From an uncultured Pseudomonadota bacterium (GTDB lineage: Bacteria; Pseudomonadota; Alphaproteobacteria; Rs-D84), in NCBI GenBank assembly GCA_902799285.1, contig CADCAA010000001.1:7533-71532 (forward strand): a stretch of 64,000 bases of DNA. The letters are read 5' to 3'. The position numbers and the translations under genes were made by a program. The notes under the pieces are model-generated. The model worked only from the letters and a program-made list of their open reading frames with translations. It had not been told where the DNA came from and made no database searches. How positions within the stretch are numbered: position 1 is the stretch's first letter; every line of letters starts with the position of its first letter. This document shows positions 961 to 53,390 of this stretch, piece by piece.

Positions 961-1914
961 ATGAAAAACGAAACAAAACTTTTTATAGAAAAAATAGAAT
1001 CTGCAAATTCTATTCTGTTGACGGCGCATAAAAATCCCGATGGTGATGCGTTGTGCACAATGCTGGCTTTGTATCAATTAATTGTTTTGAATTATGAAAA
1101 AGAAGCCGTTTGCATTTATGATGGTAATGTGCCCGAGGCTTTGCGTTATGTCCCATTGCGTGGGCGTGCACATTTTTTTGCGCATGTTGATTTAACACAG
1201 CCTTTTGATTTGGCGGTGTTATTGGATTATGGAACAACTAATAATATTGGTGGGACGCGTAATGCGTTGGATGCTGCAAAATTTTTGGTTGAAATAGATC
1301 ATCATAAAAACGATAACAAATTGGGTGCGTTGTGCATTGATGATGATACTGCGTCGGCGACGGCATGTTTGGTATATGATTTGATGATTGATGCCGGTTG
1401 GAAATATGATGACAAAGTTTTGAATTTGTTAGCGTTGGGAATTTTGACCGATACTGGGAATTTCAAATATGCGCGTGATGGGCGGCCTTTGCGTATTATG
1501 GGGAATTTGGTTGATGGCGGCGTTGAAACGAATCGTTTGTTAGAATTGTTAAATAATAAACCGCGCAAGACTATTCAGACCGAGGCACGTGTTGTTGCGG
1601 ATGCCGAATTTTTATATAAAAATCGTTTGGCGATTGCGGTTGTTGATTCGACGGCGTATAAAAATCTGGACGGGCGCGGTGAAAACGCTTTGTCTTTGTT
1701 GGGCCAGGTTAAGGGTGTTGAATACATTGTTTTATTAAAGGAACAAAAAGAAAACCAAATTGGTGTATCATTGCGCAGTAAATTTTTACCTGTGAATAAA
1801 ATCGCAGAACAATTGGGCGGTGGTGGCCATATGTATGCGGCCGGTGCCGTTGTGCATGATGATAATTTGGAAAATGTAAAAAATCGGGTCATAGAATTAT
1901 TCAAAGGGGTATAA
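961..1914 (+). CDS. DHH/DHHA1 family phosphoesterase (NrnA-like oligoribonuclease/pAp phosphatase)
   Basis: ATG at 961, one nt after the recJ stop. Motifs HKNPDGDAL, EIDHHKN (DHH) and GGGGHMYAAG (DHHA1). Confidence 0.75.
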   Translation: MKNETKLFIEKIESANSILLTAHKNPDGDALCTMLALYQLIVLNYEKEAVCIYDGNVPEALRYVPLRGRAHFFAHVDLTQPFDLAVLLDYGTTNNIGGTRNALDAAKFLVEIDHHKNDNKLGALCIDDDTASATACLVYDLMIDAGWKYDDKVLNLLALGILTDTGNFKYARDGRPLRIMGNLVDGGVETNRLLELLNNKPRKTIQTEARVVADAEFLYKNRLAIAVVDSTAYKNLDGRGENALSLLGQVKGVEYIVLLKEQKENQIGVSLRSKFLPVNKIAEQLGGGGHMYAAGAVVHDDNLENVKNRVIELFKGV

Positions 1915-1919
1915 GAGAG

Positions 1920-2534
1920 ATGAAAAAATTTTTAATTGCGATTTTTGCTGTGTTCTTGGCGGTGCCCGGGTTCGCAGATGTGAATAAATCCCACGTTCAA
2001 AAGGCGGAAAAATATCTGAATTCTGTGACGGGCCTTGCGGGTGATTTTATTCAAACATCAAATGGCAAGGTTGCCAAGGGATTGTTTGCTATGCTGCGGC
2101 CGGGACGTGTGCGTTTGGATTATACGAATGCAAAAATTCAATTGATTTCTGATGGAACGGATTTGTATTTCTTTGATAAATCGTTGGATCAAATTACGAC
2201 TGTGCCGTTGACCAGTACGCCGGCCGGAATCTTGGTGCGAAAAAAAATAGATTTACAAAATGCAGATATTGTTGTGTCTGATACTTTCGAAGGTGATAAA
2301 ACTTTTGCGCTGACCATGCATTTGCGCGATAACAAGGGTTTGGGGCACATGACGGTTGTGTTTGATAAATCACCGGTGAAATTAAAATCTTGGACGGTTG
2401 TGGATGCCACAGGGGCCAGTACGGATGTTGTATTTCGTAATTTGAAAACTAAAACAGATTTTGATAAAAACTATTTCCAAATTGGTCGGCATAAAACGGT
2501 CAGTAATGCCGGTATGGATGATTTTTATAATTAA
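1920..2534 (+). CDS. lolA: LolA-like periplasmic lipoprotein carrier
   Basis: Signal peptide MKKFLIAIFAVFLAVPGFA, about 200 aa, LolA-like N-terminal pattern (LAGDFIQ...LRPGRVRLDY). Called on overall resemblance only. Confidence 0.5.
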   Translation: MKKFLIAIFAVFLAVPGFADVNKSHVQKAEKYLNSVTGLAGDFIQTSNGKVAKGLFAMLRPGRVRLDYTNAKIQLISDGTDLYFFDKSLDQITTVPLTSTPAGILVRKKIDLQNADIVVSDTFEGDKTFALTMHLRDNKGLGHMTVVFDKSPVKLKSWTVVDATGASTDVVFRNLKTKTDFDKNYFQIGRHKTVSNAGMDDFYN

Positions 2535-2537
2535 AAA

Positions 2538-2828
2538 ATGTTTGGTATTAGTTGGGCTGAATTTTTAGTAATTTTAATTGTCGCAATTTTGGTTGTGCCG
2601 GTGAAATATTGGCCGGATGTGGCGCGTTGGTTGGCGCGTGTGGTAAAATATATCCGCCGGATTATTTGGAAAATCACAGATGCGACCGATAAAATCAAAG
2701 ATCAAATTGATTTAGAAAAACCGATTAATGATGTAATTCATACAACAACAGATGATATTTTGAACGATTTTTCAGAACCATTAAAAAAATCACGTGGACG
2801 CAAGAAACAGATAAAAAATGATAAATAA
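2538..2828 (+). CDS. tatB: Twin-arginine translocase TatA/TatB-family component
   Basis: MFGISWAEFLVILIVAILVV TM helix followed by an amphipathic helix. It overlaps the start of tatC. Confidence 0.65.
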   Translation: MFGISWAEFLVILIVAILVVPVKYWPDVARWLARVVKYIRRIIWKITDATDKIKDQIDLEKPINDVIHTTTDDILNDFSEPLKKSRGRKKQIKNDK

Positions 2829-3531
2829 AAAAATGACTTTGATGGAACATTTTGCCGAATTGCGTCGGCGGTTTTTGTGGTGCATTTTTATATTTTTTAT
2901 TGCGTTTGTATTTGGGTGGTATGTCGCGCCGTGGGCCCAAGGTTTTTTAACCGAACCGTTGTTAAAGGTTTGGCGCGGACAATTGTTATATAATGGATTG
3001 ACCGATGGTTTGATGATACGATTGTCTTTGTCGACAACAGTTGCGATGCTTGTGACTTTGCCGGTGTTGTTATGGCATATATGGGCGTTTGTTGCGCCGG
3101 GATTAAAAAAGAACGAGCGGAATTTTATTTGGCCATTATTGATTGCGTCGCCATTGTTGTTTGTGTTTGGTGCGGCTTTTGCATTTTATGTTTTGTTTCC
3201 GTCGGTCTTTGGTTTTTTCATAGAATTAAATCAATCGTCAAATGTGCCGGTTGTAATTATGCCGGCGGTGCGCGATTATTTAACATTTGCCATACGTTTA
3301 TTAAAGGTTTTTGGAATCGCATTTCAATTGCCAATTGTTATGATTTTCTTGAACCGTATTGGTGTGTTGTCGCGTTCACGGGTTGTGGCGATGCGGCGTT
3401 ATGCGATAATCTTGGTCGTTGTTGTGGCCGCGGTTTTAACGCCGCCTGATGTTGTTTCGCAGATTTTATTGGCGATACCGATGCTTGGGTTGTTCGAGTT
3501 AAGTATTTTGTTTATGCGTCGTGATGATTGA
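2818..3531 (+). CDS. tatC: Twin-arginine translocase subunit TatC
   Basis: N-terminal EHFAELRRRF motif and multiple TM segments, about 237 aa. An alternative start is at 2833. Confidence 0.85.
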   Translation: MINKKMTLMEHFAELRRRFLWCIFIFFIAFVFGWYVAPWAQGFLTEPLLKVWRGQLLYNGLTDGLMIRLSLSTTVAMLVTLPVLLWHIWAFVAPGLKKNERNFIWPLLIASPLLFVFGAAFAFYVLFPSVFGFFIELNQSSNVPVVIMPAVRDYLTFAIRLLKVFGIAFQLPIVMIFLNRIGVLSRSRVVAMRRYAIILVVVVAAVLTPPDVVSQILLAIPMLGLFELSILFMRRDD

Positions 3532-3572
3532 AACAATTTATTTGTTGGGAAAAATGTGATATAATTTGTCGT

Positions 3573-5054
3573 ATGAATAAATTTTTTGGTTTTTTATCTG
3601 TGGGATTGATTGCCGTAATAGCGGGGTGTGATTTGCAACCAAAAATTGCATCTATTCCGGGCAGTGTGGGGGATTTTATTTCCGAACGTTATCCAACATT
3701 ATTGGCGGAACCAGACAGCGAGATTTATAAGACTGCGGTGGCGGACTATGGCGTGTATGCGTCGCCGACGGTGTATGGTGATGGCGATGTGTTGGCGGAC
3801 GATTATGTTTTATATTCGCCGGCTGATGATTATATGATGCCGGCCCAGGATACAGATGTTTCACCGGATGATGTGGGTATGCCCGATGATGATGGGGCGG
3901 ATGATGTTGAACAATCGTCAGATGCGTCGGATGAAATCCAAGAAAACGCGCCGGATGATGATATCGATGATTTGCATATTCCGGACTATGTGGATGAAAA
4001 ACCGGTATTGACGGTTGCACCGAAACCCGCGCCAAAAAAAGAACAGAAATCAGAGCCAGAAAAAAAATCGGATGCCGAAAAAACGCCGGAAATGGTGCGT
4101 GCACAACTGCGCGAGGTGACAATAGAGCAGGGTGATACCCTGTATTCTGTGTCGCGTAAATATTCTGTGCCGGTGAACGATTTGGCGGTTATGAATAAAA
4201 TTAGTGCGCCGTTTACATTATCGGTTGGACAAAAGATAAAGGTGCCAGATGTTTCGTCTGTTGCGAAAAGTTCGGGTGTGCGTGTGGCCACCACGCCTAA
4301 ATCTGTGGATGTGAAAAAGCCGGCCGGTGTGCAGAAAGTTGCGGAAAAGCCCGCTGCGAAAACCGAAGCAAAACCTGTTGAGGCAAAAAAGGTGGCAACA
4401 ACACCGGTTAAAAAGGCAGATGCGCCAAAGGCAAGTATGCCAAAGGTTGATGCAAAACCAAAAGCGACGAAGTCCGGGGATGCAACTAAAAAAACAACGG
4501 ATGCCAAGAAGACAGAGGTCAAAAATCAGGCGAGAAAAGCAGATGTGAAAAAGGCTGATGACAAAAAAGTTGCGAATAAAAAGCCGGATGCCAATGTGAA
4601 AAAATCTGATACGAAAAAGGTAGCGCAAAAAACCGAAACGAAAAAACGGGCAACAAAACAATTGGCAGCGCGGTCGTCGTCTAAATTCTCGTGGCCGGTG
4701 CGGGGCAAGATTTTGTCGGGCTATGGTTCCAAAACAAATGGGTTGTTTAATGATGGTATCAATATCAAGGCATCGCGTGGCGCGCCGGTTTTGGCGGCGG
4801 AAAACGGTTTTGTGGCCTATGCCGGGAACGAGGTCAAAGGTATGGGTAATTTGGTGATTATCCAGCATGCGGACGGTTGGATGACGGTCTATGCCCATAT
4901 GGATTCGATGAATGTGCGGCGCGGCAGTACTGTTTTGGTCGGCCAAAAAATCGGGACGGTTGGAACGTCGGGCAAGGTTGACCAGCCACAGTTGCACTTT
5001 GAAATTCGTAAAGGCACCCGTGCGTATAATCCAATTAGTTATTTGAAAAAGTAA
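3573..5054 (+). CDS. LysM + M23 peptidase lipoprotein (NlpD-like murein hydrolase activator/endopeptidase)
   Basis: Start moved to ATG 3573, which gives the lipobox signal MNKFFGFLSVGLIAVIAGC. LysM block GDTLYSVSRKYSVPVNDLAVMNKI. C-terminal M23 block GINIKASRGAPV...QLHFEIRKG. A long Asp-rich then Lys/Ala/Thr/Pro-rich low-complexity linker lies between them. Confidence 0.85.
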   Translation: MNKFFGFLSVGLIAVIAGCDLQPKIASIPGSVGDFISERYPTLLAEPDSEIYKTAVADYGVYASPTVYGDGDVLADDYVLYSPADDYMMPAQDTDVSPDDVGMPDDDGADDVEQSSDASDEIQENAPDDDIDDLHIPDYVDEKPVLTVAPKPAPKKEQKSEPEKKSDAEKTPEMVRAQLREVTIEQGDTLYSVSRKYSVPVNDLAVMNKISAPFTLSVGQKIKVPDVSSVAKSSGVRVATTPKSVDVKKPAGVQKVAEKPAAKTEAKPVEAKKVATTPVKKADAPKASMPKVDAKPKATKSGDATKKTTDAKKTEVKNQARKADVKKADDKKVANKKPDANVKKSDTKKVAQKTETKKRATKQLAARSSSKFSWPVRGKILSGYGSKTNGLFNDGINIKASRGAPVLAAENGFVAYAGNEVKGMGNLVIIQHADGWMTVYAHMDSMNVRRGSTVLVGQKIGTVGTSGKVDQPQLHFEIRKGTRAYNPISYLKK

Positions 5055-28355: not shown

Positions 28356-29216
28356 ATGTTTCGTAAGTTTTTGATTTTTGCAATGTTTGCAACGGCGGCT
28401 GGCTATTGCTTTGCTGATTCTTATTTGCCCCAGGTGACCACGTCCGAGGTTTTTGTTAACGGTGACATAATCGAACATCGTGCGACGCAAAATGATGCGC
28501 GTGATGCGGAACCGGCGCCGGTCGCGGAATATGGTAATGTTCCTGCGTGGCCAATTGCGGGTTCGGACGCGGACGTGACTGTAAAGTGCGATGATAAACC
28601 GGGTGTAAAAAATTCTGATAATATTCGTATTGTGTCCAAAATTGGCGATGATATGATTGTTGATAATACGTTTGATTTCAATGGAACTGGTTGGACGGGT
28701 GGTGCAAATATGCTGCACGGGAACCGGATTCCAATGGGATTTGACGACGAATGCGAAAATGGTGCCGAAATGCCTTTGTTGCGTCGCGATATGCTAGAAG
28801 ATGACGGTGGCAGTGTATTGGCTGTATCGCGCAGTGGTCGTAAAAATTGCACAAAGCGTAATGGTGCGGCGGACGCCGTGTTTATGGAAATGGATAACGA
28901 TGCCGATATTGCCGAAATTGGGGTAAAATCTGATGCCCAGGCGCCAAAATCACAACCGGACCAGGTTCGTTCTTGGGTTGTCGCCAATGGCCAGACCTTG
29001 CGTGAGGTTTTACAAAATTGGTGCGACAAAGAGGGCTGGGATTTGGTATGGGCGACATCGCGCGAATACCCGATTGAGGCCAGTGCTGTATTCAAGGGTC
29101 GTTTTACAGATGTTGCGTCTGCGTTGGTGCGTAATTTTGGACGTGCGACACCTGTGCCGTATGCCAAGTTTTACAAGGGAAATTTGGTTTTGGTGATTTC
29201 TACTAACGAAGACTAA
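28356..29216 (+). CDS. TcpQ/PilL-family type IVb pilus secretin-associated protein
   Basis: Signal peptide MFRKFLIFAMFATAAGYCFA. The C-terminal block VRSWVVANGQTLREVLQNWCDKEGWDLVWATSREYPIEASAVFKGRFTDVASALVRNF...YAKFYKGNLVLVIS matches the TcpQ-domain pattern of PilL/TcpQ proteins as recalled from memory. Confidence 0.6.
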   Translation: MFRKFLIFAMFATAAGYCFADSYLPQVTTSEVFVNGDIIEHRATQNDARDAEPAPVAEYGNVPAWPIAGSDADVTVKCDDKPGVKNSDNIRIVSKIGDDMIVDNTFDFNGTGWTGGANMLHGNRIPMGFDDECENGAEMPLLRRDMLEDDGGSVLAVSRSGRKNCTKRNGAADAVFMEMDNDADIAEIGVKSDAQAPKSQPDQVRSWVVANGQTLREVLQNWCDKEGWDLVWATSREYPIEASAVFKGRFTDVASALVRNFGRATPVPYAKFYKGNLVLVISTNED

Positions 29217-29240
29217 ATGCTTGGTGGGAGATATAGAGAT

Positions 29241-30869
29241 ATGAGAAGTTTGTTGAAAAAATTTGTTGTGTTTGCGTTTCTGGGGGCTGTGCTGGCGGGC
29301 TGTGCGCGTGAACAATCGGCCAAGGTTGCGGCGACCGTTGACCAGGATTTCGTTAACGCGTATGATGCGTTTGAAATGGCAAAAAATCCCCGTGCCAAGG
29401 TGGCCAGTGGCGATACGGTATCTGTATCCGAAGGTGTATGGTTGGGGAATAAATCGATATCGCTGGAACATCGCAATAATTTGCCGGCGCAATTTGAAAC
29501 GGATACGGGCATTACGATTTTGCTGGATGAACCTGTGACGTTGCAGGTTTTGGCGAATAATATCAATACTGTGACACATATTCCGGTTAAAATCGACAGG
29601 CAAATTAATTCTGAAAAATTGAAAAAGACAATCAATGTCGCATATACCGGTAAATTGTCCGGATTGCTGTCCCAGGTTGCAACCGATTTAGACCTGTTGT
29701 GGTATTATGATAAAAATTCGATTGTGTTTTATGAAACGGAAACGCGCACGTTTTCATTGTATGCGCTGGGGACCGATATTTCGTACCAGACCGCCGTGTC
29801 GACCGATAATTCCAGTAATGTTGTGCTGGAATCAACAATGAAGGAATGGGACGAGGTTGAAAAGGCCCTGACCGCGATTGTTGGTAATGCGGAAAATTCT
29901 GATTTCACCGTGTCGCGCAGTTTGGGAACAATTACCGCCACGGCACCACCGTCTGTGTTGGCGCGTATCAGTGACTATGTTGATCGGCAAAACAAACGGT
30001 TGTCGCAATTGGTGACAATTGATGTCAAGGTTTTACAGGTATCAATCGCGAACGATTCGGCATTCGGGTTGAATTTGGCGGCGGCGATAAATTCTACATC
30101 TGGGTTGAATATCGTTGCGAACCCCAAGAATAACTTGGCGGCCGTCGGGGCCAGTTCGATGAACATCGCCGTGTTGTCAAACGCGCTGTCTGCGACAACG
30201 GGTGCGACGCACGTCGAAAACGGCAGTGTGGTCAGTGGCGCATATACAAATGATCAAATTATGAACGGATCATTGGCGCGTGGCGCGGGCAGTGCCGGCT
30301 TGATTGAGGCTTTGGCAAAACAGGGCAAGGTGTCTTTGGTGACAAATGTTGGTGTGACGACGCGTAATAATCGTGTTGCCCCGGTCAGCAATATGACATC
30401 AACCGGATATATCAAACGTTTTGAATCTCGCAACTTTACAACGGTCGAATCCAGTACCGTTGACCAGGCGGATTTACAAACTGGTTTTTCAATGCAATTG
30501 TTGCCGAATGTTTTGGAAAATGGCAAAATTTTGTTGTTGTTCAGAATGTCTGTGCGTGAATTGGTGAAAATGTCGACCCAATCGATTGGCGAGGTCACAT
30601 TGCAATTGCCCGAGGTCGAAGAACGCAGTTTTATGCAAGAGGTTATTATGGAATCCGGCCAAATGTTGGTTGTATCTGGGTTTGAAAAGCAAAAGAATAA
30701 TGACACACGTTATGGTTTGGGCGATCCTGACTTTATGGCATTGTCTGGGTCACGTTCTACGACATCCGGCCGTGATGTGTTGGTTGTTATCCTGACGCCC
30801 CAGGTATTAATCAGTCCGTTGGATGCGGAACGCAGTATCCAACAAAATTGGGGAACACCATTGAATTAA
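29241..30869 (+). CDS. Lipoprotein secretin, type IVb pilus class (PilN/TcpC/BfpB-like)
   Basis: ATG 29241 and lipobox AVLAGC. C-terminal secretin domain (GKVSLVTNVGVTTRNNRVAPV...GFSMQLLPNVLENGKILLLFRMSVREL...GQMLVVSGFEKQKNN...RDVLVVILTPQVL). Confidence 0.8.
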   Translation: MRSLLKKFVVFAFLGAVLAGCAREQSAKVAATVDQDFVNAYDAFEMAKNPRAKVASGDTVSVSEGVWLGNKSISLEHRNNLPAQFETDTGITILLDEPVTLQVLANNINTVTHIPVKIDRQINSEKLKKTINVAYTGKLSGLLSQVATDLDLLWYYDKNSIVFYETETRTFSLYALGTDISYQTAVSTDNSSNVVLESTMKEWDEVEKALTAIVGNAENSDFTVSRSLGTITATAPPSVLARISDYVDRQNKRLSQLVTIDVKVLQVSIANDSAFGLNLAAAINSTSGLNIVANPKNNLAAVGASSMNIAVLSNALSATTGATHVENGSVVSGAYTNDQIMNGSLARGAGSAGLIEALAKQGKVSLVTNVGVTTRNNRVAPVSNMTSTGYIKRFESRNFTTVESSTVDQADLQTGFSMQLLPNVLENGKILLLFRMSVRELVKMSTQSIGEVTLQLPEVEERSFMQEVIMESGQMLVVSGFEKQKNNDTRYGLGDPDFMALSGSRSTTSGRDVLVVILTPQVLISPLDAERSIQQNWGTPLN

Positions 30870-30871
30870 AA

Positions 30872-30896
30872 AATCCGCTTCGGCGGATTTTTTTAT
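30872..30896 (+). terminator. Rho-independent terminator after the secretin gene
   Basis: AATCCGC-TTCG-GCGGATT followed by a T7 run. Confidence 0.8.
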
Positions 30897-31371
30897 TGCC
30901 AAGGGTTGTTTCCATTTTCTATACTAATAATCAGAATTCAATCGGAGTTGAATTCGGGGCCTTCAAAAGCCTTATCAAAACCCGGTGCAGGGTTTGCACT
31001 GTTATCCGAAAGCAGGACCGATTCGGTTTTGCGATAAATGACAGATTCAGACTTTGCGCCGACATATATAAAATTTTTCGTTGGCGCAAATTTTTTTGTA
31101 TAACGAAAATTTTGTATATGGATATATCCAATGATTAAACCCCGACGATGGTACCGGTTCGGGGTGCTGTATATCGCAAGGTATATGGGATCACATGGTT
31201 TTGATGATTTTTGAACACCCCGACCGCACTCTTGATTGAGGCGGTATTTTTTGTTTGTTTCGGGATTTTGCCCCGAAAACAATTCCCGCTGTTTAACCGC
31301 CGAAATCGGCGACAAGACAAGGCTTGGTCCTGAAACAAACAAAAAATACCACGAAAGCAAAGGGGAGACAG

Positions 31372-33606
31372 ATGAAAAAGATTTTGTTTGGATTGTTTGC
31401 ATTATTGTTTACCGTGCCGGTGTGGGCGACGAATCCGTGTCAGAATTTATGGAATAAAAATTTGGCTATCAGCGGCGCATACGATGCTAATGGCAGTTAC
31501 ACATATGATGATGCCAACACAACATATTCTGAAATTATGCCCGTGACCGCTGGACAAACAGTTGTTAGTATTACCCCGTTTAGCACTATGCATTTTATTG
31601 TGGTTTATAATGCTTCTGGTGCTGTGATATATCGGCCAGGACCGCAAACAGGCACCAGGGTTACATGGACTATTCCTGATAACGGTGTTGGCATGCGACC
31701 TATATTTGGAACAGCGAGTGCACCTGTGCATCCAGATGATAATATATTGATTTCATTGGATACCACGGCGACGGCGTATACGCCTTATGATCCGCGGTGT
31801 GAGACATGTGACGGGACGGTGATGAACTATACTTCGGCAACCGGAACCGTGACACAGAACGGCACGCCGACACCGACAAACCCGATTGACCCGGTTTTCT
31901 TTCGCCAAGGCGATATGGTCCTGCGCAAAGTCGGTGATGTCGCCGATTCATACGATGCAACAACCGGTAAAATCACACGCCGCGTCGGGGTCAAGGTGCT
32001 GAAGGGAACGGAAGAGTGGACACAAACCACGAGTACTTATAACGGTCTTGTTTATTATCGCGCTCTAAGCATATTGTATAATGCACCGGCAACCGGCGGC
32101 AACAATGCCGAGTTATATCCTGTTATATCTAATGTATTATCGCATAAATCTGGCATATGGTATAATACTAGCGATATGGAAAATGGAATTTCAACTTGTA
32201 ACAATGGTCAATGTATTGCAATGTCTCTTGTTTCTACATATCCAACAACCAGTGAGTTTAAGTCTTGGCTGGCGGGGCAGTATGCCGCGGGGAAACCGGT
32301 TGTGGTTTATTACCAGTTGGCTACACCGGTCGAGGAAGATTGGACGGAAAGTTCATATTGTTATTTGGCAATCAAAATTGCGACCACGCAACATGTGGCG
32401 GGGGCGTTCAGTGGGCTGAATAGTCAGCTGACTGCGGCGATTGCGACGGTGAACAGTGTCGTCACAAATACGATTGACCAGGCGAACCGCATCGCGGCGT
32501 TGGCGACGGGCAAGCAAACCCGCCCGACGGACACTTGCCCACAATATCGGCAATGCCTGCTGGTCGAAGGTACCGACGGCACCCCGCATTGGTACGAAAT
32601 CAACGACCCGTTTTATAACTTCTTTGCCCCGATTTTGGCAACGAACACGAACGGCACATCATCCACCAACGACCCAGGATATCAGCAGTTGGAGTATATC
32701 GAATCCACCGGGACACAGTATATTGATTTGGGTTATTCTATATCTGGAGATATGGGGTTTGATTTGAAGGCACGTTGTTTGGGTGCTGCGTTTGTGTTTG
32801 GAGGTAGATTGTCTTCTACCTCTGGTGTGTCCGGTTTTAACTTTGATGAAGCTGGTAGTAAAATTGGTATACGTATGGGTGGAAACATACTTTATGATGA
32901 GGCTATTTGGTATGATGGTACGGATTATGCAGTAAGTATCAAAAATGGTGATATCGAAGTGAATGGAACGAAAGTATCTAGTTCAACATATGGTAATAAC
33001 TTTTATACAGGACGTGCATATTTGTTTGCGGTTAATGATGGCGGAAATCTCAGTTCTGTAACATTTAATCGTAGTAGAATATATTATTTCAAGATGTACA
33101 ACAATAATATTTTGACGCAAAATTTCATCCCTGTCCGCAGGCTTTCCGACAGTGCGCTCGGTATGTATGACACGGTGAGCAAAACGTTCTTTGCCAATGC
33201 GGGTAGTGGCACATTTACGGCGGGGCCGAACGTGACCAACGATTCCGACGTGCCAAGTGGCCCGACCTGGCGCGTGACGTGGACCAACAACGGCAACAGC
33301 GCAAGCGGCACCGTGTATGGCGAGGGATTGTGTAATAATGTGAGTGGAACTTCTTTGGGCGTTGCAGCAACATCAAGTCAATTAAGTAATGCGGCATGGA
33401 ATCAGAGCAGCGCAAGTTGCTGGTGCCGTGCAACGGGTTTAACAAGTGGTGGCGATACGAATACCACGGATAATGGAGTGTGGGGGTTCCTCGCCACGTA
33501 CAGTTCGGCGGCTGATTGTGCGCGCTACTGTGCGTACGACTGCGCGGACCTCGTTCGTAGCAACCACGAGGGCTTCCGTTCGGTGATATTCAACGCCGTA
33601 AATTAA
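31372..33606 (+). CDS. Secreted modular tail-fibre-like / lectin-like protein (744 aa)
   Basis: ATG 31372 after the RBS AAAGGGGAGA. Signal peptide MKKILFGLFALLFTVPVWA. Modules are described in the findings. It shares several motifs with the 51432-53390 product. Confidence 0.75.
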   Translation: MKKILFGLFALLFTVPVWATNPCQNLWNKNLAISGAYDANGSYTYDDANTTYSEIMPVTAGQTVVSITPFSTMHFIVVYNASGAVIYRPGPQTGTRVTWTIPDNGVGMRPIFGTASAPVHPDDNILISLDTTATAYTPYDPRCETCDGTVMNYTSATGTVTQNGTPTPTNPIDPVFFRQGDMVLRKVGDVADSYDATTGKITRRVGVKVLKGTEEWTQTTSTYNGLVYYRALSILYNAPATGGNNAELYPVISNVLSHKSGIWYNTSDMENGISTCNNGQCIAMSLVSTYPTTSEFKSWLAGQYAAGKPVVVYYQLATPVEEDWTESSYCYLAIKIATTQHVAGAFSGLNSQLTAAIATVNSVVTNTIDQANRIAALATGKQTRPTDTCPQYRQCLLVEGTDGTPHWYEINDPFYNFFAPILATNTNGTSSTNDPGYQQLEYIESTGTQYIDLGYSISGDMGFDLKARCLGAAFVFGGRLSSTSGVSGFNFDEAGSKIGIRMGGNILYDEAIWYDGTDYAVSIKNGDIEVNGTKVSSSTYGNNFYTGRAYLFAVNDGGNLSSVTFNRSRIYYFKMYNNNILTQNFIPVRRLSDSALGMYDTVSKTFFANAGSGTFTAGPNVTNDSDVPSGPTWRVTWTNNGNSASGTVYGEGLCNNVSGTSLGVAATSSQLSNAAWNQSSASCWCRATGLTSGGDTNTTDNGVWGFLATYSSAADCARYCAYDCADLVRSNHEGFRSVIFNAVN

Positions 33607-33667
33607 TCAGTTTTGATTTTATGTGCATGAAATGGGGGCATCGTCCCCCGTTTGTCGCGCCGTCCAC

Positions 33668-33695
33668 AAAAAGGGGCTCCCGGGGCCCCTTTTTG
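33668..33695 (+). terminator. Probable terminator after the fibre-like gene
   Basis: AAAAAGGGGC-TCCCGGG-GCCCCTTTTT. Confidence 0.55.
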
Positions 33696-33834
33696 TCATT
33701 GCGAGGAGCCAAGACCAACTGGGGCATTGCCCCGGGCCGGGCGCGGCGACGTGGCAAACCAGTAAATAAAAAAAGTGTCGGCAAAGCCGACGGCTCTATA
33801 TTGACCTGGGTCCTTCGTTTCACTCAGGATGACA
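33694..33834 (+). repeat. MITE-like GC-rich element with imperfect terminal inverted repeats (TGTCATTGCGAGGAG ... CACTCAGGATGACA)
   Basis: The 5-prime 67 nt align with the reverse complement of 5297-5364. The 3-prime end GGGTCCTTCGTTTCACTCAGGATGACA resembles GGATCCTTGCGTCGTTTC...CCTCAGGATGACA at 5297-5364. G+C is far above the flanking DNA. Confidence 0.5.
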
Positions 33835-33841
33835 TAAAAAA

Positions 33842-33862
33842 ACATCGGACATTTGTCCGATG
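33842..33862. terminator. Bidirectional terminator (serves rpsT on the minus strand)
   Basis: ACATCGGACA-T-TGTCCGATGT perfect 10-bp stem flanked by A-runs and T-runs. Confidence 0.75.
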
Positions 33863-33867
33863 TTTTT

Positions 33868-34128
33868 TTAAGCAATTTTGGAAAGTTTTTTGGTTAAACG
33901 CGAAACCTTGCGTGCGGCGCGTTTTTTCGGCATTGTTTTGCCGGCGGATTTCATAATTTTACTTTCCGCGTTGCGCACGGCGATTGTCGCAGCCGCGCGA
34001 TCCCCAGTTGCAATTGCCGCCAAAGCCTTTTTCGTTTCGGTTTTTACAGCACTGCGCCGGGCGGTGTTAATCGCGTTCTTTTTAATTGTGACCAAAATTC
34101 TTTTTTTAGATGACTTGTGATTTGCCAT
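33868..34128 (-). CDS. rpsT: 30S ribosomal protein S20
   Basis: MANHKSSKKRI start, 86 aa, basic, S20-like throughout. Confidence 0.9.
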   Translation of the reverse strand: MANHKSSKKRILVTIKKNAINTARRSAVKTETKKALAAIATGDRAAATIAVRNAESKIMKSAGKTMPKKRAARKVSRLTKKLSKIA

Positions 34129-51370: not shown

Positions 51371-51431
51371 TGCCTGAAAAAAATAAATAGTTGTTCATAT
51401 ATGATTTCTTTGTTCAGTGGGAGAGAACGTT

Positions 51432-53390
51432 ATGTCTAGATTAAAATTCTTGTCATGTGTGATATTATCGTCATTTGTGGCGATATCCGCGGCGTATGCA
51501 GAAGGCGAAGAAGCAATTCCTGCACAGACCGAGCCCGAATCGTTGCAAGATGTTGTTACGGGTAATACACCAACAGAGGCCACAATAACATCGATGGGCG
51601 TTTGTGGCGAGAATTTATTTAATCCCCAATTGTTATCCGAATCGGATTTTAATGTGACTATATCAAATGGGACTATGAGTGCCGTTGGTAAATGGAATCA
51701 ATATGTGAATGCATATGTGTCTGCATATAATTTTGGTTTCAAGCCGGGTAAAAAGTATAAAGTCACATATACCATCAAATGTGGTGATACTGAGACAGGG
51801 ACGCGTTTTTTAGGGTTAAAGTTGGCTGATAATACGGTTGTTGGTCCGACGAATGTGTGTGCTGGTCAAACCGGGGACAAGTTGGTTTCGTATTGGTATG
51901 ACAGCAGTGTGTCGAATCCCGTTGTTGGTATGGTTGCGGGTGGTGAAGCATCAGAGGAAGAGATAACATTGCAAAATGTTATGGTGACCGAGGCTGAAAT
52001 GTCGACGTCGTCGTATATTCCATATCTTGCATGTATCAAAGTTGCGTCAAAGTTGAGTACAGACAATCGTGCCGCGGTTGTGGAAAATCGTTTGAACGAT
52101 GTTCGTTCTGTGATTACCAATTTGATAGGTCAAATGGAGACAAATACCACGAATATTCTGTCACTGAATAATGCAAAACAAACACGTCCGGCGACGGCCT
52201 GTGATGATGGCAAAAAATGTTTGTTGGTCAAAGATACCAATGGCGGGAATCATTGGTATGAAATCCAGGATTGTAACGAGGATGATTTCTTGGATGATGT
52301 TGGGACGATGACGACGTGTACTGATTGTGGTGCTTATGTTGCCGGGATGCGTTATGCCAATGGCGGTAATGGTAAAATGTGTGAGGCTTTATCAAGTACG
52401 GCTGCGGCAGGATGTGATACTAATGAATGGGCAACTTCTTTTGCCAATAATACAAACAATACCAGTGGAATAATTTATGGAACGGCCAGAACGGTTCCAA
52501 TTGCGGAACGTAATGTTGGCACGGTTGTAGAGTTAAGCAGTGCGACTTTGGCAATGTCTGGAAATGTTTGTGTGTGTCAGGCGACCAGATATGTGTCAAA
52601 TGGTGTTGAAACAGTTTTGCCCGAAAGTGATAAGTGGATGGTGGCCAAAGTTATGACAGGTACGTTTACTAATGATAACTGTTTAGAAGTTTGTGCGCAT
52701 GAAGACCAGGGCGTATCTGGTTCTGCAAGTGATTCTGCAAAATATGCGGCATATTTCAAAAATATTAGTAGTTCATGCAGCCCAAATGCACAGAGCACAA
52801 CAACATGTAATTACAATTCGTTCTTGCGGACATTGTATGATGGGTTGGATTCGGGTTTAGTGTCGATTTCCATTTCGTCCCAAGGAACAAATGGATTACG
52901 TGTTTACGGCAGTTGCGGGACAGGTGGTAGTTTTGCATCTGATACAGATATTTGCGGAACATCGGTGACAAATCCGGGCGCGTGGGTTGTTGGTGCGATA
53001 CAAACAGATGCGCTTAATGGAACGCTGTATTCCAGTGTGTACAATGGCGCGTTGGTATATGGTAAATCCAGATGTGTTTCAGATTCATCTGTGTTTGACA
53101 ATGTTGCGGACTTTGATGTCGTAAAGTTGGATAGTGCGCCGGCGGCATCCAATTCTGGGACGGTATGTTTGCACAATATAACGGGATACAAACCGGCCAA
53201 TGGTAGCAAGACTGCAACCAGTGCTGAAAGCCAAAAATACTGGATTGTTAAAAAGTATGCAACGGCCGAAGAATGCAATGCAGAAAATAGTACAAGCGGT
53301 TGCTATGGCGAAGGTTGGACCGAAAGTTATCTGAGGAATGGTAATTTCGATTTCTATGGCAAGGTCGGCGATGCATGTTTGGCTAATTAA
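51432..53390 (+). CDS. Secreted modular tail-fibre-like protein (652 aa), paralog-by-module of 31372-33606
   Basis: ATG 51432 after the RBS GGGAGAG. Signal peptide MSRLKFLSCVILSSFVAISAAYA. Shared motifs CGENLFN, IKVAS, a coiled coil followed by AKQTRPATAC..KKCLLV...HWYEIQD, and two C-terminal CxC...W...Cx3C modules. Confidence 0.7.
   Translation: MSRLKFLSCVILSSFVAISAAYAEGEEAIPAQTEPESLQDVVTGNTPTEATITSMGVCGENLFNPQLLSESDFNVTISNGTMSAVGKWNQYVNAYVSAYNFGFKPGKKYKVTYTIKCGDTETGTRFLGLKLADNTVVGPTNVCAGQTGDKLVSYWYDSSVSNPVVGMVAGGEASEEEITLQNVMVTEAEMSTSSYIPYLACIKVASKLSTDNRAAVVENRLNDVRSVITNLIGQMETNTTNILSLNNAKQTRPATACDDGKKCLLVKDTNGGNHWYEIQDCNEDDFLDDVGTMTTCTDCGAYVAGMRYANGGNGKMCEALSSTAAAGCDTNEWATSFANNTNNTSGIIYGTARTVPIAERNVGTVVELSSATLAMSGNVCVCQATRYVSNGVETVLPESDKWMVAKVMTGTFTNDNCLEVCAHEDQGVSGSASDSAKYAAYFKNISSSCSPNAQSTTTCNYNSFLRTLYDGLDSGLVSISISSQGTNGLRVYGSCGTGGSFASDTDICGTSVTNPGAWVVGAIQTDALNGTLYSSVYNGALVYGKSRCVSDSSVFDNVADFDVVKLDSAPAASNSGTVCLHNITGYKPANGSKTATSAESQKYWIVKKYATAEECNAENSTSGCYGEGWTESYLRNGNFDFYGKVGDACLAN

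Follow-up and report, generated by a model that had tools for sequence, protein, structure and literature searches.

How a single gene can switch sharply between GC-rich and AT-rich blocks within its own coding sequence, and whether such a switch marks foreign DNA, is the question raised by the segment lying between a secretin gene and rpsT in the genome of an uncultured alphaproteobacterium. The whole stretch of DNA analysed, hereafter the window, comprises 64,000 nucleotides of contig C1 of a metagenome-assembled genome (MAG; G000, 857,750 bp in 47 contigs, 94% complete, 41.9% G+C). The preliminary description of this DNA regarded the segment as an island between two strong terminators, its gene as a recombinational mosaic assembled from donors of different base composition, and the whole island as possibly acquired by horizontal transfer. 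As listed between the two boundary hairpins, the island contains one credible open reading frame (ORF), which encodes a protein designated P0001. Our analysis indicates, with a probability of roughly 0.8, that this gene codes for a modular secreted adhesin in which shared frameworks alternate with swapped cassettes, and of which the tip is derived from a diversity-generating retroelement (DGR). Contigs of G000 are designated C, the genomes G001 to G009 include the congeners, and L stands for loci of homologues and relatives, among which L011, L013 and L015 represent another lineage, the species of G018 or one near it.

The frameworks comprise the conserved block of the N-terminal domain, a predicted coiled-coil stalk with its Cys hairpin joint, the last strands of a LamG-like domain and a Cys-rich C-terminal domain. 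The copy-specific cassettes are three in number, one N-terminal, one in the middle and one forming the LamG-like core. The coordinates of all these parts are given in Table 1.

The four 60-nt G+C counts by which the switch had been illustrated (35, 19, 39 and 24) were exact on recount. When heterogeneity was measured as the standard deviation (sd) of the G+C content at third codon positions (GC3) in 50-codon windows, the gene gave an sd of 0.161-0.163, with GC3 ranging from 0.18 to 0.76, as compared with 0.04-0.09 for 21 other long genes of the window. In a genome-wide set of 504 ORFs of 200 aa or more (median 0.062, 99th percentile 0.125) it ranked second, and ranks 1 and 4 were occupied by its paralogs. 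At four-fold degenerate codons, GC3 was 0.75 in the conserved segments and 0.37 in the variable segments (Fisher p = 9e-10), indicating that the composition effect sits at synonymous sites. GC3 was also correlated with the conservation of alignment columns (smoothed Spearman 0.62 in a family alignment of 117 sequences).

Codon usage of the GC-rich blocks differs from that of the backbone genes for CTG (0.41 vs 0.13), GAC (0.55 vs 0.21), AAC (0.64 vs 0.27) and GCG (0.64 vs 0.37). Of the four codons previously described as uncommon in the backbone, CTG and GAC indeed depart strongly, while ACC and GGC differ little. The codons of the AT-rich blocks are backbone-like or slightly more AT-rich, and it is therefore the GC-rich parts that are the compositional outliers, not the AT-rich core. 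The paralogs on C26, C37 and C39 carry the same alternation of GC-rich and AT-rich parts, and the homologues at L011, L013 and L015, in a lineage with a backbone GC3 of 0.34-0.50, are not uniform either, the same GC3 mosaic being present at the same alignment positions. The proposal of donors of different composition was not supported by this comparison, because the alternation recurs in paralogs and in another lineage, tracks framework versus cassette, and leaves the AT-rich blocks with native-like codons. Composition is correlated with the type of module, not with a donor genome; possible causes of the correlation are considered below.

At least six further ORFs or fragments of the family were detected on other contigs, together with one more member inside the window. 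At the nucleotide level, positions 32375-32727 are 93% identical to C26, 97% to C39 and 84% to C37, positions 33120-33292 are 95% identical to C26 (C26:28053-28224), and positions 33316-33621 are 80% identical to C6. For the AT-rich core, positions 32745-33115, no nucleotide match to any paralog was found. It is precisely the GC-rich blocks that the gene has in common with its paralogs in DNA sequence. Two database proteins represent paralogs that are divided between contigs in G000, P0003 (789 aa) being C26 joined to C6 and P0037 (696 aa) being C40 joined to C39.

The comparison with C26 gave a clear pattern along the protein. Over residues 334-435 the amino-acid identity is about 1.0 and the synonymous third-position identity 0.77-0.93; over residues 450-570 these values are about 0.3 and 0.36-0.78 (with 7-11 sites per window); and over residues 586-640 they are again about 1.0 and 0.93. 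The changes are located at the edges of the AT-rich lectin core, within which the amino-acid identity to paralogs was 0.2-0.37. These switches in synonymous identity indicate that adjacent segments differ greatly in age. At the amino-acid level, the conserved block of the N-terminal domain is 68-79% identical to proteins of the G018 lineage and 27% identical to its own paralogs, the stalk is 93-97% identical to its own paralogs and 55-60% identical to all others, the LamG core is 67% identical to P0002 of the other lineage and 19-39% identical to its own paralogs, and framework 2 is 91% identical to P0003. Inside the stalk, a maximum chi-square breakpoint was located at 32640-32643 (permutation p = 0.0005). 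Informative sites agree with C39 on the left of 32640 (16 of 20) and with C26 on the right (33 of 38). The nucleotide identity of the stalks is 88-94% among the copies of G000 and, one identical pair apart, 74-90% among those of the G018 lineage, as against 58-66% between the two groups; this clustering by genome bears the signature of concerted framework evolution.

Replacement of a cassette was observed in L043, a 926-bp contig from another metagenome sample, which is 96.7% identical to positions 32605-32727 and 96.4% identical to positions 33121-33655 of the window (100% over 33169-33629). In this contig an unrelated LamG-type cassette of 269 nt takes the place of the 393 nt of the window gene (32728-33120). 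The earlier view of a mosaic generated by recombination, with a cassette swap in the lectin-like domain, was supported, the breakpoints coinciding with the composition switches that had been noted. What keeps the frameworks near-identical from paralog to paralog is homologous recombination or gene conversion, and the cassettes are exchanged as units. Homogenised frameworks and exchanged cassettes together make the gene a patchwork, of which the nearest relative changes from segment to segment, and the GC-rich frameworks would supply the homology for the exchange of cassettes.

The GC-rich block at the 3' end of the gene was not recognised in the preliminary description for what it appears to be, a DGR-type variable region (VR). 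It aligns with a template repeat (TR) on contig C42, and 16 of the 22 substitutions between them fall at template adenines, which account for 27 of the 108 positions (binomial p = 3.5e-6). Both the TR and a DGR-clade reverse transcriptase (RT) are present in G000, with a cognate VR at 2 kb from the TR. The best PDB match of the RT was 8ub7_A (4.5e-47, versus 1e-15 for a group II intron RT), and the protein contains IGNLTSQ, in agreement with IGxxxSQ, which we take to be the motif of DGR-clade reverse transcriptases. In other VRs of the genome the mismatches also fall at template adenines, in 17 of 17 cases on C10, 15 of 15 on C4 and 16 of 20 on C6. From these counts, C10 and C4 are probably active DGR targets, and the C42 element appears to diversify three or more further genes, whether in cis or in trans. 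The VR sites in question are C10:23991-24125 and C4:2846-2959, and the VR domain on C10 is internal, being located upstream of the stalk.

The VRs on C42, C10 and C4 share with the TR the 3' end ...GGCGGTCTTTGGT, the region in which mutagenic homing starts (IMH region). Those of the window gene and C6 end differently, in ...GG(T/C)(G/A)ATATTCAACGCCGTAAATTAA, unlike the TR. A second TR matching the 3' end of the window VR was not found in the assembly; one may be contained in the missing 6% of the genome. From the TR/VR alignment we conclude that the C-terminus of the window gene is, in all appearance, a DGR VR by descent, which is probably no longer rewritten by the TR of this assembly. The same type of TR and VR was detected in two other species, with 16 of 16 and 15 of 15 differences at adenines. 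An RT orthologue is encoded by 35 of the order's 151 genomes, and a copy of the Cys-rich domain frequently lies next to it. In the literature on DGRs in gut Alphaproteobacteria, no paper describing the family was found. One of the related retroelements, at L013:416-3545, consists of a VR (416-548), a TR (1304-1436, 15/15 at adenines) and an RT (2520-3545) beside a 676-aa target, and a repeat of about 120 nt occurs three times around the TR.

Several observations weigh against the reading of the gene as frameworks and swapped cassettes with a DGR-derived tip. First, L043 is short, its reading frame is broken where cassette and framework meet on the right, and it may be a pseudogene or partly chimeric. 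Second, the MAG, in 47 contigs, breaks at these repeats, and mis-joining at a framework is conceivable. Third, the cause of the GC3 split is a difficulty, in that dispersed repeats are barely GC-enriched genome-wide (0.452 vs 0.418), the sister sub-family pair C1:58937/C24 shares 84% nucleotide identity without GC enrichment, and the GC-rich conserved block of the N-terminal domain is without a partner inside the genome. Finally, the window VR looks stale: relative to the sole TR in the assembly it has six non-adenine substitutions, a 3-nt insertion and another 3' end, and its identity in L043, from a different sample, speaks weakly against activity. Given these features, current diversification of the window gene is unlikely or unproven.

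The alternation of composition might be caused by GC-biased gene conversion, by which recombining frameworks are pushed to high GC3 and cassettes without a partner drift to AT. This would be a cause behind the alternation of frameworks and cassettes, not another architecture, and we put it forward tentatively, at odds somewhat short of even. It agrees with the GC3-rich segments being the tracts homogenised within each genome, with the GC3 of the cassettes (about 0.2) being below the genome mean of 0.40, and with the repetition of the pattern across lineages. It does not agree with the composition of the other dispersed repeats of the genome, which are not GC-rich (45.2% vs 41.8%) and on which ground biased gene conversion was rejected as a genome-wide effect, nor with the tract shared by C1:58937 and C24, which is 42% GC; moreover, the outgroups are 35-40% diverged, too distant to polarise the substitution spectrum.

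The next explanation is that the whole island was horizontally acquired and the gene assembled from donors of differing base composition, and it has to be judged from the state of the locus in related genomes. The boundary hairpins, both of which had been missed by a consensus terminator scan, were folded directly, and all three hairpins of the segment are intrinsic-terminator-like on folding. Upstream of the island are a TcpQ-like gene and then the secretin gene, and downstream are rpsT (a name taken over from the preliminary description, not from a family-library match), plsY and dprA. Homology between the window and six congeners breaks off at 30868-30875 and restarts at 33862-33868, namely, at the stop codon or terminator of the secretin gene on the left and the end of rpsT on the right. 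Since homology ends and restarts at the same edges in all six, the boundaries of the island are real, and its placement between two terminators holds.

The flanks, secretin and rpsT/plsY, are conserved, and the content of the slot is present or absent among close relatives. In G001 the slot is 443 bp long and contains rpsT only, with two terminators about 30 nt apart and nothing between them. In G003 it contains one ORF of 160 aa, in G002, G009 and G007 two other secreted-protein genes (G007 having an additional LamG-domain ORF of 267 aa), and in G004 an unrelated secreted protein of 781 aa. The slot being empty or occupied by other genes in these six congeners, the locus is variable in the genus, and the difference in cargo identifies the secretin-rpsT slot as a hot spot for surface-protein cargo. 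Full-length members of the family were found in only two of the 31 relatives sampled, G000 and G018. No integrase, transposase or tRNA flank was detected in the island, which has a single credible ORF and two terminators as its edges. Acquisition of the island by horizontal transfer is thus plausible but unproven, with the variation of the slot among congeners and the patchy distribution of the family for it, and the lack of a mobility gene in the island against it.

Assembly of the gene from different donors is in addition favoured by the strongly deviating codon usage of the GC-rich blocks and by the N-terminal block and LamG core, which are nearer to another lineage than to their own paralogs. 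We nevertheless consider it unlikely, because the same alternation occurs at the same alignment positions in the paralogs and in the other lineage, the codons of the AT-rich blocks are near-native, the GC-rich blocks are just what the gene has in common with paralogs of its own genome, and mobility functions are lacking around the single ORF. The composition of the island is not uniformly donor-like, alternating instead with the type of module.

Less likely still is selection as the driving force of the mosaic, acting through GC-ending 'accurate' codons or GC-rich structure of mRNA or DNA in the conserved segments. The GC3 of GroEL, 0.54 against the genome mean of 0.40, indicates that highly expressed genes lean toward GC-ending codons, and GC3 correlates with amino-acid conservation. 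The frameworks, however, have a GC3 of 0.65-0.85, above that of GroEL, and translational selection was rejected on this ground; nor can codon choice produce the switches in synonymous identity, the incongruent relatives or the replaced cassette in L043. The high GC3 of the frameworks would come from biased gene conversion, from selection, or from both. That C1 is a chimera joining paralogs at repeated frameworks is very improbable: although family repeats contain the ends of C26, C6 and C39 and the start of C37 in this short-read MAG, the exact 744-aa product is encoded on four contigs (the longest 90.6 kb), other assemblies join C26-C6 and C40-C39 into coherent full-length P0003 and P0037, the frameworks of the paralogs differ by 3-16% and are not identical repeats, and L043 independently shows the junction of framework 2, VR and 3' flank.

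The features of the island, and those of the retroelement on C42, are summarized in Table 1.

Table 1. Features of the secretin-rpsT island (positions in the window) and of the DGR on contig C42.
Feature	Position	Strand	Remarks
Secretin terminator, hairpin and U-run	30868-30893	+	-13.4 kcal/mol, z = -3.1; left edge of variable slot
Promoter-like site TTGCCA-18-TATACT	30896-30925	+	best consensus match in region, 10/12
Family-specific leader (5' untranslated region)	30897-31371	+	about 440 nt of the 475-bp upstream stretch; shared with paralogs
Coding sequence of P0001, 744 aa	31372-33606	+	secreted modular fibre/adhesin-like protein; from ORF and translation
Sec signal peptide MKKILFGLFALLFTVPVWA	31372-31428	+	read from sequence
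N-terminal variable segment, AT-rich	31432-31776	+	GC3 0.25-0.40; 6-14% column identity to family; low AlphaFold confidence
Conserved N-domain block, GC-rich	31777-32016	+	GC3 0.45-0.75; residues 136-215
Middle variable segment, AT-rich	32017-32241	+	GC3 0.25-0.35
Framework 1: conserved block, coiled-coil stalk, Cys hairpin joint	32242-32727	+	GC3 0.6-0.8
AT-rich core cassette of LamG-like domain	32728-33120	+	GC3 about 0.2; swappable unit
Framework 2: end of LamG domain and linker	33121-33291	+	GC3 0.65-0.85
C-terminal Cys-rich domain	33292-33603	+	C...CWC...C-x3-C-x3-C; scaffold bearing DGR VR
DGR-type VR, diverged from template	33480-33590	+	aligns to TR at C42:1479-1586
Terminator hairpin of the gene itself	33666-33696	+	-21.6 kcal/mol
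GC-rich MITE-like element	33695-33833		imperfect inverted ends GTCATTGCGAG... / ...CTCAGGATGAC
Bidirectional rpsT terminator	33836-33869	both	-19.6 and -19.1 kcal/mol; right edge of slot
TR, rich in AAC codons	C42:1462-1596		encodes ...WVFNNTNSSAANCANNCANNCANNVRNNADFRSAVFG
Accessory ORF, 108 aa	C42:1879-2202		no family match
Reverse transcriptase, 342 aa	C42:2206-3231		PF00078, E = 1e-13
Three MITE-like repeats	C42:3257-3505		
VR of convergent target gene	C42:3751-3625		13/14 mismatches at adenines; cassette 1462-3838; contig ends inside gene

The island is a single transcription unit, consisting of promoter, conserved leader of about 440 nt, coding sequence and terminator. The promoter-like site is kept at the heads of the leaders of the C26 and C40 paralogs, and the leader itself matches the upstream regions of these paralogs (C26:25893-26227 and C40:2084-2571) with about 70% identity along some 450 nt. 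Within the leader lies a candidate attenuator or riboregulator, a conserved hairpin (31223-31245) with a U-run behind it, about 120 nt before the start codon. A search of the leader and terminators against Rfam gave no family for the leader, and at permissive thresholds only sub-threshold microRNA and small-RNA look-alikes were obtained. A ribosome-binding site, AAGGGGAG, lies 5 nt upstream of the start codon, and this stretch together with the signal peptide is 89% identical in nucleotide sequence to the C40 paralog.

Downstream of the gene is an element resembling a miniature inverted-repeat transposable element (MITE), with the imperfectly inverted ends GTCAT(T/C)(G/C)(C/T)GAG. Positions 33656-33782 are 86% identical to C42:3538-3421, downstream of the cognate VR on C42. 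The core of the element has only eight copies in the genome, six of them adjoining parts of the DGR, and it was absent from the retroelement cassettes of other species. Both the leader and this downstream element are common to paralog or DGR loci, which had not been recognised in the preliminary description. In the other lineage, the family gene of L015 (615-3071) has inverted related MITE-like copies on either side, at 194 (-) and 3216 (+), with the sequence GTCATCCTGAGCGAAGTCGAAA... The arrangement of these copies hints that MITE-like elements travel with, or mobilise, the family genes.

P0001 gave no usable match in the family libraries Pfam, PHROG and NCBIfam. A total of 389 homologues were found, the named ones being hypothetical proteins of Alphaproteobacteria or Proteobacteria MAGs, which would derive from gut samples. 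The conserved block of its N-terminal domain is 71-74% identical in nucleotide sequence to L011, L013 and L015. The AlphaFold model of the full-length protein (mean pLDDT 72) consists of beta-rich N-terminal parts, a helix at residues 339-379 corresponding to the stalk, a beta-hairpin joint, a jelly roll at about residues 430-610 and a compact C-terminal domain. In Foldseek searches the jelly roll matched LamG, neurexin LNS, agrin G2 and pentraxin structures with probabilities of 0.98-1.0 and TM-scores (target) of 0.44-0.54. The only PDB matches of the family profile were isocitrate dehydrogenases (E about 0.003-0.1), which were treated as chance. The protein may be a surface fibre or adhesin with ligand-binding modules, possibly oligomerised through its helical stalk, and the lectin-like and Cys-rich domains may bind ligands of a partner or host. 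We regard the gene as of an ordinary kind, a modular variable adhesin, in an undescribed family, with two unusual features, the lineage-wide GC3 dichotomy and a DGR scaffold unlike the C-type lectin.

The second of these features concerns the C-terminal domain, which was modeled separately with higher confidence (pLDDT 87, pTM 0.79) as a small sheet leading into a pair of helices, with the VR spanning the last strand and both helices. The domain contains seven invariant cysteines, and its variable codons follow a register of four residues (three CAxx units, then one VRxx), which is predicted to be helical. Annotated VR regions have been reported to be systematically of the C-type lectin type (Roux et al. 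2021, PMC8144416). For the C-terminal domain, the best Foldseek matches had E values of 2.1 in PDB and 0.39 in BFVD, and its profile gave nothing in PDB at E <= 10 and no Pfam match at E <= 0.1. A C-type-lectin fold of the VR-bearing domain was found neither among the PDB and BFVD structure matches nor among the PDB profile matches, and on present evidence the scaffold is predicted to be something other than a C-type lectin. The domain is widespread: 1063 representative clusters (50% identity) were obtained at E <= 0.001, the longest of the proteins having 6218 aa and a single protein containing as many as seven copies, and 85 of the order's 151 genomes encode it. It is possible, though we would not yet bet on it, that the domain is an undescribed non-C-type-lectin scaffold of DGRs, with a CAxx x3/VRxx helix perhaps stapled by the cysteines, which is distributed clade-wide in gut Alphaproteobacteria of about 0.9 Mb, is carried on fibres with GC-rich recombination anchors, and takes part in a two-tier variation. 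The two tiers of variation in surface ligand binding would be the exchange of cassettes and adenine-directed retro-mutagenesis.

Three known systems appear to be the closest functional analogues, namely, the MAT fibres, mosaic phage receptor-binding proteins and DGR variable proteins. With the DGR variable proteins (BPP-1 Mtd, Treponema TvpA and the targets of remote-target DGRs) the window gene has in common a terminal VR (about 110-130 nt) in a ligand-binding protein, an AAC-rich TR, differences between TR and VR at adenines, an RT adjoining the TR and several VRs per TR. It differs from them in its scaffold, a small Cys-rich alpha/beta domain with a helical variable repeat and no C-type-lectin match, in the non-adenine changes, indel and different 3' end of its VR, and, for C10, in the internal position of the VR domain. 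On its predicted fold, the protein would therefore not be classed as a classical DGR variable protein. The mosaic tail-fibre and receptor-binding proteins of phages likewise have conserved anchors flanking divergent receptor-binding domains, with a nearest relative that shifts along the gene. In contrast to these, the window family is chromosomal, has a signal peptide and is multi-copy in a cellular genome, with its own conserved promoter and leader for each unit and with neither phage context nor a PHROG match.

The MAT (mosaic adhesive trimer) fibres of Bdellovibrio bacteriovorus (PMC10769870) resemble the window family as a large paralog repertoire of Sec-exported, phage-fibre-like surface proteins. 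They are trimers with a beta-helix or beta-prism shaft and C-terminal tip domains, and their signal peptide is followed by a conserved, beta-rich N-terminal domain of about 130 aa (Caulton et al. 2024, PMC10769870), whereas in the window family the stalk is predicted to be alpha-helical and is combined with LamG-like domains, a Cys-rich tip and a link to a DGR. No MAT chain was found in PDB by the family profile, and lectin domains were all that Foldseek retrieved with the model of the whole protein; PDB contains the MAT fibres without their N-terminal domain, and the searches refer to the remaining parts. On these features the window protein falls outside the MAT superfamily. With the LamG, pentraxin and concanavalin-like lectins, the protein shares the predicted jelly-roll fold of about 180 aa, the likeness being one of fold prediction only. 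It differs from them in having no Pfam match and only 4-18% sequence identity to the structural matches.

With genomes of only about 0.9 Mb, these uncultured gut Alphaproteobacteria probably rely on attaching to a host or partner, and an undescribed secreted family with at least seven genes in this MAG would be a prime candidate for partner recognition. The family has been diversified by cassette exchange, and several of its members by the retroelement as well. A VR scaffold that is confidently predicted and yet unmatched would challenge the view that the C-type-lectin fold is near-universal in DGRs. The contrast of GC3-rich frameworks with AT3-rich cassettes across lineages offers a natural case in which biased gene conversion can be separated from selection in bacteria. 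As for the question raised at the beginning, a sharp switch of composition within a gene can mark recombination architecture, not foreign origin.

Three additional observations were made on this genome. The TcpQ-like gene and the secretin gene (28356-30869) are kept across the genus with 78-85% identity (L018-L023), and the secreted-protein cargo of the slot immediately after the secretin gene changes in almost every species, which raises the question of whether the cargo could be a substrate or partner of the secretin. High GC3 (0.67-0.71, against the genome mean of 0.40) was also found at C44:3596-4912 and C14:17726-19630, where, as assigned by eye from the translations, a GH3-type glycosidase and two glycosyltransferases appear to be encoded; these genes are unrelated to the window family, and they may be foreign DNA or lie on mis-binned contigs. 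The second family member of the window (51417-53390, 657 aa) shares only the stalk and joint with the gene described above, at about 34-47% amino-acid identity; its GC3 is flat (0.38), and a tract of 264 nt, 42% GC, is 84% identical to the C24 paralog.

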